A stretch of 64,000 nt of DNA from Camelus dromedarius (taxonomy: Eukaryota). This document shows positions 3,980 through 51,181 of this stretch, piece after piece; position 1 is the stretch's first letter; the number at the start of each line of letters is the position of its first letter. Position numbers and translations under genes: made by a program. The DNA lies in assembly GCF_036321535.1 (NCBI RefSeq), contig NC_087436.1:58530001-58594000 (forward strand), in the 5' to 3' direction. Under the pieces are notes generated by a model that worked only from the letters and a program-made list of their open reading frames with translations, had not been told where the DNA came from and did no database searches.

Positions 3980-4590
3980 GGATTGATTCCATATCTTGGT
4001 TATTGTAAATAATCCTGCTATGAACACTGGGGTACATGAATATTTTTGAATTACAGTTTTCACCAGATTCATGTCCAGGAGTGGAATTGCTGGATCACAT
4101 GGTAATTCTATTTTTAGTTTTTTGAGAAACCTCCATACTGTTCTCCATAGTGGCTGTACCAACAGTCCAAAGGGGTTCTTTTTTCTCCACCCACTCTCCA
4201 GCAGTTTTTATTTGTAGACTTTAATGATGGCCATTCTGACCAGTGTGAGATGATAGTTCATTGTAGTTTTGATTTGCTTTTCTATTTTTTCATGTGCCTA
4301 TTGTCCATCTGTATGTATTCTTTGGAGAAATGCCTATTTAGGTCTTCTGCTGCCCATTTTTTTATTGGGTTGTTTGCTTTTTGTTGTTGTTCAGTTGTGT
4401 GAGCTGTTTGTATATTTTGGAAATAAGGTCCTACTGTTATAGCACAGGGAACTATATTAAATATTCTGTAATAAACTTTAAAGGAAAATATGAAAATGAA
4501 TATATAACTATAACTAAATGACTTTGCTGTACACTAGAAACTAACATTATAAGTCAACTGTACTTCAATTGAAAAAATTATTAAAAAGCA
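3980..4590. mobile_element. 5'-inverted, truncated LINE-1 (antisense ORF2 end 3980-~4425 joined to sense 3' UTR ~4422-4590)
   Basis: Minus ORF 3965-4162 ([28 protein letters not shown]...) is the L1 ORF2 C-terminus. From ~4422 the + strand reads the cetartiodactyl L1 3' UTR 'aaggtcctactgttatagcacagggaactatatt...tacttcaatt' plus an A-rich tail. Confidence 0.88.
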
Positions 4591-5949
4591 AAAGAAAGGA
4601 AAATAAATTTAAGTTCATTCAAAAATCCTTAAAGTCAATGAAAATCTAAATGATAAAGAGAATACAAAGTGTTTTATGAGGATGTCAACATTTGCCATAC
4701 AGGATCTTTCTTTTGTCTATATTGTCTATTGCCGGATAGATGTAAATTAATGAAATTTGCAATTCTGTGTGTTTATTATCACATTTATAATTCAAGAATT
4801 ATGCAAATGTGTTAGACGCTTTTCACATTAGTTGAAATCAGTAGAAAACTGAAATGATCTCTGTATTAACATCTCACAATCTCATTATTTATTCTATTGG
4901 CACCTAATTTAATACTAAGACCAAACAAAAGGACATGTCAAACAAGATTTTCAACAAATAAGATTATGCTGTCTTATAAACTGCAAATGAACATTTAATT
5001 GGATACTTCTAAAAGAGAAGATCCAATTAGAGGAATATAAACTCTTCAATGAAGACTTGGATGAAATTACAACGAAAGTACAACATTATTCACAGCCCTA
5101 GTAGTGTTTTTCTTGCTGCTGGTGAATTATAACACCCTATGTAAATAATTTTTCTAATAGGCTTGATAATACCAATGAGCAAACAAATTAAGCAATCTGG
5201 TGAAATGACACTTTATTCCAGGATTGTGGTATGTTCCTATTTTGGCATATATGTAATACCATTTATTTCAAAATGCTGTTTAAAGAAAAGTGATTGACAT
5301 TAGTTGAGTAAAGTCTTGAGTTTGCGTATTTTCTCTCTGCCTGATATTTCCCTTACCTCCCTCTCTACTCCTTTTCTGACAAATATTCCTACTTACCTTT
5401 CAAAACTGCACTGGAGAATTTATTTCTTTGAAGCACTTCCCTTAACTTCCTATGAGAATTTGACACTTCTCTCTGATTTTAAACAAACCAATCATTTTAA
5501 TATTTATGTGCTTACATTTTTGTCTCCTATGAGACTATAAGCTCCTTGAGATCAATGATCTCATCTCTTTCATTTTGGATTCCTTGGAGCCTAACACACA
5601 CTATCAAATACTGGCTATACTGAATATGATATACTGAATTTACACATTACCTTTTTTTGAGGAGTTCTGACAGTTTTTAAACTTACAAATGGTGTTAGTG
5701 GGCATTATATTGTTTTGTTATCAAAAGAAAATAGTTAATTATCCTAATTCACCTATACTAGAAAGTGGGCAGAACAACAAGTTAATTTACCTACTAAAAC
5801 TCTTCTGCCATGGAAGGCTGTAGCTTTATCTATAACATTAAAGAGAACAGTCTTTCTCTTAACTGAACTGAGATGCTCTGGAACTTTTGTTTGAATTGGG
5901 GTTAGGATAAAAGACAATATGGTAAAAAAAAAAAAAAAAAAAAGCCTTG

Positions 5950-7950
5950 TTGTTGATATGATCTTAATGTTGCTTGTATCTGATCTCAACATTTTATCTC
6001 CAACCCTAGGTTTCCACCAGTCGTCTACAGACTCCACATGTGTTCTCTTCCTAAACTGTTATTTTTTACCAGTCAGCAATCTTTCAGATGTTGTTAGCGT
6101 GGTATAGCATAGATTTTTGCACTGAAAATTCCAGGCTCCTGTTCCCAATCTGCTTGTTTTTATGCCTGTGTTAGATTTTGTGTATCCTAATGCATGTATT
6201 GGTTCTGTTAAACTGGTTTCATTGCTATTAGAACAATTAACCTGTGGCCTAAATTCCTAATACCTAGATGCCACATCGTATGTTCTCTTAATGAACATAT
6301 TACTAGTAAAGTTCAAAGTAGAGTAAATAATTTTTTGGATGGGCCACCATAGTTTGGTTGATGATTATGTTGTTTGGCACCTCATTACATGGAGATTCAG
6401 CATAATTTAATATATTGTAATGTATTGATGGCACTATTGGATTGATGTGTGTTTTGTTATAGTATCAAAATAATTGTATCCCTTTAATACAGTTATGAAT
6501 GGTCCTATATTGTTGGGCCCATAGGAAACATTAAGTACAGATTCTATCTACATTGAAGATGGGCATATAGCTACTTGTTATATTTTACTTGGTCATGCCT
6601 CATTCCTCGTTATTGCACCATTATTTTGTTCAAGAACCATTAGTCATCTCTCCAGTGACAAAACTTAACTATTTGAGTAACCTCTGTGATACTTACATGT
6701 ATGAGAAAAGCCACGTTTATATGTTTCATAAGTTAGATTTCTTGGTACCAATGGAAGAATTCCATGGTGCCAGGGAATTCAGAATATGATAGAGAATCAA
6801 TGTAGGGTTTGAAATAGCTAGGTTATAGAATTCTGTGCCAGATGTGGCAATGGTTGTCTCGTGTATAAATTACCATAACAGAGCAGGTTAGGCCATTCTG
6901 TGACATGAAGTTTAACCTCTTTGGTATTATATTCCCATGGGAACCCCTAAATAGAGATTCTCTTTGTATGAAAGTGGAGCTAGTTGTAGTTTCTTTCAGG
7001 TACTTTTCTGGTGGACTCAGTAGGGTCCATTAAATATGTCAACTGGCATGGTGGGCATCTGTGGGGTCTGTCTGGTGGTTTTATTTTCTCTGTAGTGTAC
7101 TTTGTTTCCTCTTTCTTATAATCATAACAGGCTTCTTTACAGTCTCCTACTTGTCCTATACCCATATCCATTGCCACATGGCCAGATGATATAGTCCTTT
7201 AGATGAGGCCTCCAAGTACTAATTACATGACCTATGTGTTTCACGTTGTGGCTCTATATGTGTCATTAGAATTGTCATCTTTTGTCCTACCAGTTGGTAA
7301 AATCAACAAGCATCCTTCAAGGGTGAAGCATTGCTGCATTTCTATAAGTGCACTTTTTGGGTCTGTGTATAGAGAGAACATATAATCTCTCATTTTTTGA
7401 TATTTAGAGTATCTGAATTAGCCCCACCAGTATAGTATTTGGGAGGGAAGTGGATGATGTCACAAGTGTTGGAGTCATATCCTGACCAGAGAATGGTATT
7501 CCAGTTTGGAGAGACTGCACAACTGCAGTTGTTGGTGCTATCTGTGGAGAATCCATAGCTGCAATGAGTCTGGTATCCAGTAGTATATAACAGGCAAAAT
7601 AGTGTGGCCGGTAGGCAGCATGCTGCACCACCCATTCAGCAGTATTTATAGGGTTCAAAATGCATAGTGGGCCTATTCCTGCAAAATAGTGTCCTATACA
7701 TTTCTAATTCTTTCTAGTTGTTCTTGCTCCTGAAGGAAATCCATTACAGCCATTACTGTCAATGGAGCCCCAAGCCTAATTTCCCTGCACCACGCTAGGC
7801 TAAATATTAGGCATCTAGTAATGATGCCATATGAAAATGTGTCCAGCTATCATATATAGAGTAAACATCCATATTTTTAGTACCTACAACCAATGTTGAT
7901 ACAATAGAAGATGGTGTTTTATATACTTGAAAATTTTATAGAGACGTCAG
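5950..7950 (-). pseudogene. env: env-like gene, SU N-terminal/central part (inverted segment), many stops and frameshifts
   Basis: Lies directly downstream of IN. Cys/Trp/Pro-rich frames (WGSIDSNGCNGFPSG..KCIGHYFAGIGPLC; GGAACCLPATLFCLL..NNCSCAVSPNW; GDCKEACYDY..PHRCPPCQL) with N-glycosylation sequons (NCS, NVS, NFT, NET). The frame continues into the + segment through the duplicated junction. The start position is approximate. Confidence 0.7.
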
Positions 7951-7999
7951 ATTATTTTCTTTAATTTGATGTATTAAGCTTTTTCCTTTAGTCAGTAGT

Positions 8000-8447
8000 A
8001 GGTTTTATTATATATAAATATATGTTTATATCATTATGTTTTTTGATTAATACCTTTCCTTTTAATTTAGATTCTGGGGTTTTCTTAGTGCTAATTCTTA
8101 TTCCTGTGGGTGCTTATGATATTAATTGATTCGTAGGAGATATTTCATCCCTTCTGTACCTGCTGTTTACAGACCTTGCTGCCTCCCAGATTGCTTTCAT
8201 ACCTAGACTGTTAGTAAGCAACCTAATGTTTTGCTTGAGTAAGTCATTATACCTTTTAGTTGATTCAGAGGCAGTTGAGTTGTAGGTTAAATAGAAGTTC
8301 CAAATTATGCTGGGTCTTCTATTTTAATCTTGCATTATTTTTCCTGTGAAGTGGCTTCCCTGGTCTGATTCTGTGATGATGGGGATATTGTAGCAAGCCA
8401 CACAGATTTCCAGTACTCTAATTGGTAATTTTTTGATCACTTTCCTG
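8000..8447 (-). pseudogene. pol: Retroviral integrase catalytic-core fragment, class III type
   Basis: One frame reads CYNIPIITESDQGSHFTGKIMQD*NRRPSIIWNFYLTYNSTASESTKRYNDLLKQNIR, matching the class III pattern YGxPxxIESDQGTHFTG..QQW....I.W.FHLPYNP.AAG.IERxNGLLK. Confidence 0.9.
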
Positions 8448-8516
8448 CCATGATATAATAATCCTATTTGTGACCAATGGCAACTTACAAGATTTATCTT
8501 AAGAAACACAATAACT

Positions 8517-10392
8517 TACAAGCAACATTAAGATCACATCAACAAGAATTTACAATTTGGACTTCTAGGTATCTTACTGCAGCCAAGGGCAATGATGATG
8601 GTTTAGGGATAGAAATAGTCACTATACACCCTCACGATGATTCATGGACTACTATATCATTGAACATTCATAGACCCGCATTAGATTATCTACAATACCC
8701 ACAGCTTACACTATATAACCCATATTCACCCATTTAAAAGTTAACTGTATAACCATGGACACTATATCCTGACTTCAAGAAACAGAAAAAACATGTAAAG
8801 TAGCTAGAGAACACATTGGAAACCTAAAATATAATACTTATTATTAACCATGGTGCTATACCATGGGCTTCTATCTCATCCCTACTTCTCTGACTCCCCA
8901 AATATGGGAACCTATTGTTCATTAAACCTCTTACTGTTAGAGCCCAGTACAGTAGCATATACTCTTAAAATTCAACACACAGGATTTAGAAGCCAAATAT
9001 AGATCTTCTAATTGTGCTCAATTTTATCTATCCAATTTTATGCCTAACTTATAAAATATGCCAAAGACTGATTCATTAAAAGTAAGAAAATCCCTACAGT
9101 TTCTTGCTGAACTTATGGGGCGAATACTTGGAGGCACAATGGCAGCAGACTTTTCACAAATTCAAATTGACCAAATCACTTTGGACTTTAAAAAAAATAA
9201 TAAACAATCACAATTTAATATGCATGCGATGGCAGCTTTATTACGATTGGGCACACAGATGAGTATGATTAGCAGTGCCCTGCAAAACATAAATGATTTT
9301 CAAGCAGAAACAGGGCACTGGATGTTCTGAAGAAAGCATTTGAGAATAATTGCAAAAACAATGAAATTCTAAGAAACAATATAAAAGATGTTTGAAGATT
9401 GACTGTCAAATATTACAATTGAGGTTGGAAGGTATGTAGAATATACTTGAAGCAACAATAATCTCTAGACAAAATTGGACACCTGAAATTGCAGATAATC
9501 CAACTAGGACTAGAGTAGATAGCGCACAACCTAAAGGCTGAGATTCCTTGGGGAACAGTGAAATTAGAATTATTAGCACGTAAAGGAGGAAACACGACAC
9601 TGAGTTACCACACTTCTGTGGTTCCCCAATATCAAATGAGAGAGTAGAAACTACAGGCCATAAAAAGCCTCCTTACAATATAAGGAAAACGTGTTTCTAA
9701 GGATATGTTGGTGAAATAAAACCAAAATACCTTTATCACTACTAGTCATTTGGATATGCTTATGATACCAGTACCCGCGACTACTTTATATATACAGTAT
9801 GGAAAACTGGAACATGATAGAATCCTCTAAGCCAAAACTAACCCTAACCTATTGGAGTCAAGGATGAAATAAGGAACACAACATAACGGGATTTGTAAAA
9901 ATAGAAGAGATAATGAATGTGATAATAGAAGGAAAAAGATATTATCTGAGGTCAATAGAAGATAGAGCAACCATTAAAATAACCAGAGAAATATTTCACT
10001 TTGAGGCTCCTAAAAGTAATAAATGTAAACTATTAGAAAAATTAAGACAAGTAAAAGAACATCTGGAAGATGAGAATAATTAAGTAAAAAACAACTTTGA
10101 AAGAACTGGAAAGAGAACAAAAACATGCATTCCGTAAAATAATGATGTCATGGCACCTGAACATGTTTGTGCTTGATAGTGCTTAAGCCTGAACTCCCTG
10201 AAGCTTCATGAAAATGACTTTTCCATGGAAACGCAATTGTCAAGTAAGCTTACAAGGTTTAAGAAACTTAATTTTTGGTTTTTTGGTGATTGGATCCAAT
10301 ACCATATTAAGGAAATCTCTGTTATGCTTTTGCCAATAATATAATGAATTTATTTAACAAAGCCTGCAGTAACAAAAATAAGGGAATTAAAT
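8517..10392 (+). pseudogene. env: env-like gene, SU C-terminus + TM subunit (direct segment), degraded
   Basis: Basic cleavage-like site KVRK (9079-9090); apolar/Gly fusion-peptide-like SLQFLAELMGRILGGTMAA; helical heptad-like region; late coiled-coil-like LLEKLRQVKEHLEDENN; Trp-rich NFWFFGDWIQ (~10270-10300); hydrophobic ISVMLLPII**IYL anchor. Position is immediately upstream of the PPT/LTR. Confidence 0.78.
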
Positions 10393-10512
10393 TAAAGGAA
10401 AATTAGATTGTAAATAATGTAGAATCATGGTGAATTGATACTTTGTGAACTTAAATGTGTACAGGGCATTAGGCCCTTCAGATTAATAAGTGTATAAATT
10501 ATCTGAAATCAC

Positions 10513-10520
10513 AGGGTGGA
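10513..10520 (+). promoter_or_regulatory. Polypurine tract of the class III ERV
   Basis: 'agggtgga' + t + TG, matching the ERV-L/ERV-S type PPT-LTR junction (…GGGGTGGAC-TGT). Confidence 0.8.
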
Positions 10521-10521
10521 T

Positions 10522-11275
10522 TGTTATGTATTTGTTTGTTACCATTTCAAATCCACTTGTTTATGGCTTAAGTGAGGTTGTTTTGATCTAAGGGTGAATT
10601 TTGTCTGCCTTGGAGAGGCCCTGTCAGGATGACATTAGCAAAACTGTTGTGCTACTGAACGCTTATCAATAGGAACACATGGAGGAGCAACTATGATTTA
10701 ATGGACATCATAATTTTAAGTCCTAAATACTAAGAATTTCTGAGGATTTACTGAGAGTGTTCAGTCTGGGCATGGCTACTCTTTGCTGATCTAAACGGCT
10801 CTCCAAAGACATCAGAACAATAGCTCCTGCCCTGGCAAGGCTACTCTTTGCTGGCAGTGGTGAACGCTGTGCCGTGGCCCCTGAAGGAGATCATCTAGCC
10901 CACCAACCCTGGCACCTTCTTTGTACTAGCATCGTGCTCTAGCAACATGGGACTTTCTGTTTACGCTGGCAGCTGGAAATCAGCTCTTGTTGGCTCAGCC
11001 AACTCTCCTGAGAACAAACTCATAGAAAGGTACACCTCAACTAAATTTGGACTTTATATCTTTCAATCTCTCCTTTTCCTGGAACAATAGTGTGATTAAT
11101 CTATCATTGGGTTGGGGTATGTTATTTCTTTATTGACTTATTAAGAGTCATTATCCTGTATGCTATTAGCTTGTGAAATACTGTTATAAACAATAATTCC
11201 CACTGTGAACCTGTGTTAAATAAACTACTGGCAATGACAACCTCAGTCTCTGAGCATAATTTGCCAACCAAAACA
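10522..11275 (+). mobile_element. 3' LTR (~750 bp) of the class III ERV
   Basis: Starts TGTTATG directly after the PPT; composition shifts away from the A-rich env; internal 20-bp direct repeat; AATAAA at 11219-11224; ends ...aaaaCA at ~11275. The family is not assigned (layout recalls the MER74/LTR53/MER54 group, unverified). Confidence 0.8.
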
Positions 11276-11276
11276 A

Positions 11277-11433
11277 AGAGTAAATCCTAAGAGTCCTCTT
11301 CACAAGAGAAATACGGGTGTTAGCTGTGGTAATCATTTTACAATATATGTACATAAAGCCATCATGCTATGCACCTTAAACTTATACAGTGATGTATGTC
11401 AATTATTTCTCAGTAAAAATCAAAAAAAAAAAA
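11277..11433 (+). mobile_element. LINE-1 extreme 3' end (L1MA-type) with poly(A)
   Basis: 'gagtaaatcctaagagtcctcttcacaag...tgtggtaatcattttacaatatatg...caccttaaacttatacagtgatgtatgtcaattatttctc' then A12. Confidence 0.85.

Positions 11434-14823: not shown

Positions 14824-14889
<66 letters not shown>

Positions 14890-51134: not shown

Positions 51135-51137
<3 letters not shown>

Positions 51138-51181
<44 letters not shown>
51138..51181. repeat. (CA)22 microsatellite
   Basis: Seen directly. Confidence 0.98.

Follow-up and report, generated by a model that had tools for sequence, protein, structure and literature searches.

The envelope (Env) protein of foamy viruses shares the fold of the fusion (F) proteins, as was demonstrated in 2024 (PMC11468914, accessible part of the article). 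According to the accessible part of the human-genome survey of Vargiu et al. (2016; PMC4724089), every envelope found on a class III endogenous retrovirus (ERV) was of the class I gamma type, dUTPase is a marker of HERV-L, and an original HERV-L env, should there have been one, was called unidentified. Reconstructed HERVL and HERVS Envs belong to a preprint (bioRxiv 10.1101/2024.10.28.620668) and could, like the Env lists of PMC4724089 and the lokiretrovirus sequences, bear on how new the present Env is. Lokiretroviruses, in the accessible text of PMC7947760, are described from lampreys, fishes, amphibians and reptiles; their Env carries an RXKR site and a detectable PF00523 match, and their RNase H groups with the RNase H of foamy viruses. 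Because the survey holds only gamma-type class III Envs, a non-gamma Env with F-like proportions on the element described here is notable. The literature searched, which left out most subscription journals, contained no description of a mammalian class III ERV carrying an F-type or foamy-type Env.

Within the window, i.e. the whole 64,000-nucleotide stretch of Camelus dromedarius DNA analysed here, positions 9091-10392 constitute the env transmembrane (TM) subunit of a decayed retroviral remnant, which ends in a long terminal repeat (LTR, 10521-11275). The window is AT-rich mammalian DNA with what we take to be LINE-1 remnants: old LINE-1 fragments at 1284-1602, 4051-4350 and 11300-11430 flank the element, the left edge of which is a poly-A run (5924-5943). 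Long (CA)n microsatellites are located at 14826-14886 and 51137-51181. A DNA search with the TM region revealed two more genomic copies (C11 and C25) at 71-73% identity, and protein searches recovered the same three copies and none further. C11 and C25 each possess two LTRs, gag-sized and pol remnants and an env. Reverse transcriptase (RT) was not recognised in the window, C11 or C25 copies; in both two-LTR copies a gag-sized region leads to the tether/RNase H without a recognisable RT (L005 4327-7136, L008 3600-5109). Non-autonomous spread of this env-bearing family is a possibility. The copies have primer sites, which we take to resemble tRNA-Ser as in HERV-S, and C11 is bordered by a 5-bp target duplication. 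The paired LTRs of C11 and C25 differ by K2P distances of 0.196 and 0.215. At mammalian substitution rates of 1.5-2.2e-9 per site per year, insertion would date to roughly 45-70 million years ago. Genome-wide, the LTR gave 54 matches from 40 scored of 101 candidates, and such an LTR-rich family probably has a repeat name already. Three LTRs of the family lie within ~100 kb of a betaretrovirus-like provirus (L017 1500-2150, G000:C37 near 14.518 Mb) with a 245-residue TM frame and a chance Pfam Fusion_gly match (E=0.09). The window locus itself lacks gag, a 5' LTR was not found near it, and it contains stops, frame changes and an inversion (Table 1); it is dead and cannot encode a product.

Table 1. 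Retroviral features in the window, with the evidence for each
Feature	Position	Strand	Basis
Probable SU coding stretch, inverted	5947..7516	-	Continues env leader; this copy only; inferred
Env leader with hydrophobic stretch, inverted	7517..7850	-	Common to C11 and C25, there oriented as TM; hydropathy 1.6-2.5; frame not settled
Integrase core and C-terminus, inverted	7851..8476	-	ESDQGSHF motif; orthologous C25 piece matches Pfam rve and PFV integrase (E=4e-8); trees
Remnant of RNase H-integrase linker at rearrangement junction	8487..8542	+	77% over 56 nt to C11 pol
32-bp inverted duplicate of 5947-5978	8517-8548	+	94% self match
C-terminal part of SU	8549..9078	+	8938-9078 common to C25; P0006 and P0020 in frame from 8965 into fusion peptide
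Basic site KVRK, presumed SU/TM boundary	9079..9090	+	Not canonical furin
Fusion-peptide-like Gly/hydrophobic stretch	9091..9153	+	Conserved in alignment A1
Long N-terminal heptad region	9154..9410	+	Heptad periodicity
Long inter-heptad insert (~200 residues)	9411..10010	+	Pieces P0058, P0048, P0054; second half predicted mostly beta
Second heptad region	10027..10160	+	Periodicity p=0.0015 (window), 0.01 (P0012, P0027)
Trp-rich pre-membrane region, membrane anchor, tail of ~12 residues	10270..10392	+	Sequence; anchor hydropathy
Polypurine-tract-like stretch	10505..10520	+	Sequence
3' LTR (TG...CA)	10521..11275	+	~130 bp past env stop; matches both LTRs of C11 and C25

Integrase, env leader and TM are all in one orientation in C11 and C25, whereas 7517-8476 of the window is reversed relative to both. 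The minus strand runs 1.57 kb past the env leader to 5947 and closes there in a 32-bp inverted duplicate of 8517-8548. Like the TM, the stretch 5947-7516 is A-rich on its coding strand, here the minus strand (AT skew 0.167 versus 0.212 for the TM); it matched neither the rest of the window nor any of the 25 own-genome loci tested, and no second copy was found. The middle piece of the C25 env does not align with it. A part of the C25 env (385 bp, L007 8494-8879) showed no convincing alignment to the window and may represent a divergent surface subunit (SU) variant or an insertion. The inverted part of the window comprises integrase, env leader and, probably, most of SU, the assignment of 5947-7516 to SU being a probable one made from a single copy. 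If it is correct, the whole Env would comprise ~1,250 codons and SU ~800 codons including the leader. An 8-bp word is common to the pol linker and the duplicated piece, which suggests a microhomology-mediated rearrangement of 5947-8548.

The sequence-only reading had proposed a TM subunit of ~430 codons. From the basic site KVRK (9079-9090) to the stop codon TAA (10393-10395), the TM (9091-10392) comprises 434 codons, about twice the usual retroviral length. In the window the TM is frame-broken: following the homologous pieces requires four changes of frame, and the resulting five stretches contain 0, 0, 1, 3 and 7 stops. A phmmer search with the single-frame translation (stops as X) against 1.84 billion representatives yielded 31 unnamed short ORFs, and a profile search together with cluster look-ups enlarged this set to 68 pieces. 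These pieces map in order along the TM and tile the whole span except ~9461-9551, a gap in direct tblastn cover across which single pieces such as P0058 nevertheless extend. Segments 8938-9410, 9548-10588 and 9662-10706 are shared with the other two copies. Because these copies share the length and independent ORF pieces tile it, it is not an insertion in the window copy.

The absence of ISD-CX6CC, also stated in that reading, was confirmed: neither CX6CC nor ISD was found in any TM frame of the three copies or in any of the 68 pieces, the sole CX6CC match in the copies being located in a leader frame and spanning a stop. ISD-CX6CC was present in 18 of 19 gamma/delta controls, and the gamma/delta TM profile reached at most 2.6 bits. 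The cleavage site and fusion peptide had been placed at 9079-9153. A basic site and a Gly-rich stretch are indeed located there, but the site is not a canonical furin site in any of the 11 sequences compared (KVRK in the window and C25; KGRK in six pieces and KVRK, KKKK and KGRE in one each), so that cleavage at this position can only be presumed. The best profile alignment of 9091-9153 was to the pneumovirus cleavage site and fusion peptide and was not significant. A later cleavage site giving a TM of standard length was also sought, and none was conserved: R-x-K/R-R words occurred in 7 of the 68 pieces, scattered and never before a hydrophobic peptide. Concerning the two helical heptad regions, the second is clearly periodic in the window (p=0.0015), whereas the first reached p=0.002 in piece P0040 and only p=0.08-0.18 in the window's own copy. 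The middle piece P0054 had no heptad periodicity (p=0.9). For the insert between the heptads, which appears cysteine-poor relative to F (one cysteine in P0054), a low-confidence model gave nine strands. The peptides quoted in the earlier reading are present, as are the Trp-rich pre-membrane region, the anchor and the short tail that it described, with anchor hydropathies of 1.66, 1.94 and 2.58 across the three copies.

Membrane-subunit lengths were compared with those of pneumovirus F (n=5), paramyxovirus F (20 of 35 measurable), foamy Env (n=14), baculovirus F (35 of 41) and gamma/delta Env (18 of 19). The 434 residues of this TM lie close to pneumovirus F1 (436-438), paramyxovirus F1 (427-446) and foamy TM (412-423), which bears out the spuma- and paramyxovirus-like proportions originally noted; baculovirus F measures 448-543 residues. 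A gamma-type Env was excluded by length (176-201 residues in gamma/delta TM) and by the lack of ISD-CX6CC. Fusion peptide, long first heptad (HRA), insert of ~200 residues, second heptad (HRB) and anchor within a subunit of 410-450 residues constitute the class Ib (F-type) layout, and this layout is present here. With the F proteins of pneumo- and paramyxoviruses as well as of baculoviruses and errantiviruses, the TM shares subunit length, a basic site followed by a fusion peptide, a beta-rich insert flanked by two heptads and a suggestive domain II match. It differs from them in having fewer cysteines, ~70 extra residues between second heptad and anchor and a much larger N-terminal subunit. 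With foamy Env it shares the long TM, a long leader with a hydrophobic stretch, a large SU, an extended Trp-rich pre-membrane region and a short tail, and the nearest solved integrase is that of PFV. In contrast to foamy viruses, the element gave no sequence match to the 14 foamy Envs, has an unrelated RNase H and only ~130 bp between env and LTR, and lacks accessory genes and a canonical furin site.

Searches of Pfam and PDB sequences as well as hhalign gave nothing significant for the TM. With hhalign no F family was significant (best E=0.015, on the anchor), and the positive control, foamy Env versus pneumovirus F, a structurally proven pair (PMC11468914, accessible part), was also missed (E=0.35). 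Foamy Env (PF03408) gave no Pfam match, and a 14-sequence foamy profile at most 0.5 bits. The alignment A8 could be aligned end to end with pneumovirus F 337-448 (domain II region), a score also attained, with three parameter sets, by 1-3 of 300 alignments with shuffled columns; this was the best of 20 segment-family comparisons and was sought after a resemblance had already been suspected. The matching words GC, V/I-x-I-G-x-x-YY and I-x-GE are located directly before the second heptad, and A8 gave no signal against rhabdovirus G. We regard this profile match as suggestive. Position-restricted combined z values were 1.8 for pneumovirus, 1.6 for paramyxovirus, 2.7 for baculovirus F, 1.7 for foamy and -0.9 for rhabdovirus proteins, compared to 1.8-2.2 for the known homologues foamy-pneumovirus, 1.9 for the unrelated pair pneumovirus-rhabdovirus and 1.4 for reversed foamy sequences. 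Fusion peptide and first heptad together had a mean z of +1.2 to +1.4 on three F families versus -0.2 on rhabdovirus G. None of the F proteins rose above the background of 262 unrelated viral reading frames (best pneumovirus z 1.8-2.1; background maximum 3.2-3.6), and of 16 F-type comparisons only 4 placed the segment where expected, which is about chance. Two AlphaFold models of natural pieces were poor (pLDDT 51 and 36), the second being all-beta. Profile-profile comparison and structure prediction, which the sequence-only reading had recommended, thus gave a suggestive A8 match lying below the real-protein background and folds of low confidence. The kinship with foamy TM and F1 that it had raised holds in layout and proportions, but homology of the TM to F is unproven; as sequence provides only a hint, the F-type reading rests on architecture and length.

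Judged by RNase H and integrase, the carrier is a class III (ERV-L-related) ERV. The C25 RNase H was recognised by Pfam (E=4.4e-8) and scored 33-46 bits on eight own-genome ERVs, whereas foamy and gamma/delta pol scored below 0. Since these eight ERVs were chosen as the top matches of this same RNase H, it is the difference from the exogenous sets that carries information. In the integrase trees, window, C11 and C25 grouped together on long branches as sister to two ERV-L-like loci (support 98/91 and 99/92). The best tree excluded foamy viruses, and a clade of element plus foamy was not rejected (p-AU 0.134). A dUTPase follows the integrase in one of two tested neighbour ERVs (L174, E=5e-8; none in L170). 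In the element itself the env leader directly follows the integrase, and three frames of 7779-8200 gave no dUTPase Pfam match. The element, with an env and without a dUTPase match, is thus not ERV-L proper, which has a dUTPase after integrase and no env. With the ERV-L/HERV-S class III group (HSERVIII, accessible part of PMC4724089) it shares an RNase H and integrase grouping with ERV-L-like loci and, in C11, the 5-bp duplication, and with HERV-S, HERVL32 and HERVL66 of the same source the lack of a dUTPase match after integrase. It differs from HERV-L, described there without env, and from HERV-S, L32 and L66, described with class I gamma-type Envs, in its 434-codon TM without ISD-CX6CC. A foamy virus identity is supported neither by the RNase H, which does not match foamy, nor by the ~130 bp between env and 3' LTR, a distance that leaves no accessory genes. 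Lokiretroviruses, compared by their published description, share with the element a retroviral LTR organisation and an F-proportioned Env; the element differs in its mammalian host and in lacking RXKR and a PF00523 match (decay may have erased a weak match). Since lokiretrovirus RNase H groups with foamy RNase H and that of the element sits with ERV-L, this lineage is not supported either, and the foamy or lokiretrovirus identity hinted at in the earlier reading was not sustained.

Three other readings of the TM were considered. A real TM of ordinary length, made to look long by decay or by insertions in one copy, would agree with the rearranged and frame-broken window copy and with the gap in tblastn cover. 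Order and spacing are nevertheless the same in two further copies and in 68 pieces belonging to other records, and the scattered later R-x-K/R-R words offer no alternative boundary before a hydrophobic peptide; we consider this reading barely credible. A captured class III fusogen (rhabdovirus G or herpes gB type), its central helix being the first heptad and its fusion loops N-terminal, was pointed to by a language-model search (Atlas), in which P0033 scored 0.91 to the Monjiviricetes_fusion and Rhabdo_glycop clusters (175-180 shared features) and P0058 scored 0.85 to the same rhabdovirus-like family. However, shuffled proteins reach 0.9 in 4-10 of 100 cases in this search, and P0058 is a low-recognition piece whose matches disagree. 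All four segments had z below 0 on 14 rhabdovirus G proteins, the class III fusogens compared here (combined z -0.9), and 17 pieces gave no Pfam G or gB match at E up to 10. Moreover, a Gly-rich hydrophobic peptide directly after a basic site, as found here, is a trait of class I fusogens. Although capture of class III fusogens is known for some invertebrate retroelements, and a gB-type env has been described on retroelements (PMC13524379, accessible part), we regard a class III origin as improbable.

A class I envelope of its own architecture deserves more weight, unlikely as we hold it to be. It would possess an orthoretrovirus-like hairpin with a large unrelated beta domain in the inter-heptad loop, the F-like length being coincidental. 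No sequence or fold test links the insert to F above background, cysteines are few, and fusion peptide and heptads are generic features: the betaretrovirus-type env in the same genome matched Fusion_gly (E=0.09). Against such a coincidence, the length lies within a few residues of F1, the word-level match falls at F domain II, immediately ahead of the second heptad, and the gamma/delta TM profile stays at or below 2.6 bits; the foamy-F control was equally invisible to the same tests. On balance we favour, as rather probable, a decayed env of an ancient class III (ERV-L-related) ERV, the 434-codon TM of which likely folded as an F-type (class Ib) fusogen like foamy Env and pneumo- and paramyxovirus F; the F-type fold taken by itself is about equally probable.

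Such a TM would likely have functioned in the manner of the RSV, measles and foamy virus fusion proteins. Following the accessible part of PMC11468914, from which we infer the steps, cleavage of the precursor at the basic site by a host protease would release the Gly-rich fusion peptide. Once triggered, the protein would stretch its long first heptad into a trimeric coiled coil and insert the peptide into the target membrane. The beta-rich insert and strands of SU would form F-type head domains, and the second heptad would zip back to yield a six-helix bundle, joining the membranes. The large SU (~800 codons with the leader, if the inverted stretch belongs to it) would bind the receptor, as in foamy Env. 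A further proposal, that this Env is the missing native envelope of the ERV-L/class III lineage and an F-type fusogen descended from the same ancestor as the Envs of foamy viruses and lokiretroviruses, is tentative and in our view somewhat doubtful.

A mammalian class III ERV whose TM is non-gamma and F1-sized provides a concrete candidate for a link between the class III survey (PMC4724089, accessible part) and the F fold of foamy Env, and would allow a test of which Env, F-type or short-hairpin, is the older in retroviruses. Should the fold turn out to differ from that of F, this is still an Env type missed by standard retroviral probes and Pfam, so that surveys of viral fossils would undercount such envelopes. 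If it was the native envelope of ERV-L, the F-type Env would be the ancestral retroviral state, ERV-L would have arisen by losing it and HERV-S would have swapped in a gamma-type Env; a third kind of retrovirus, one entering cells by means of an RSV-like protein, would have infected mammals tens of millions of years ago.
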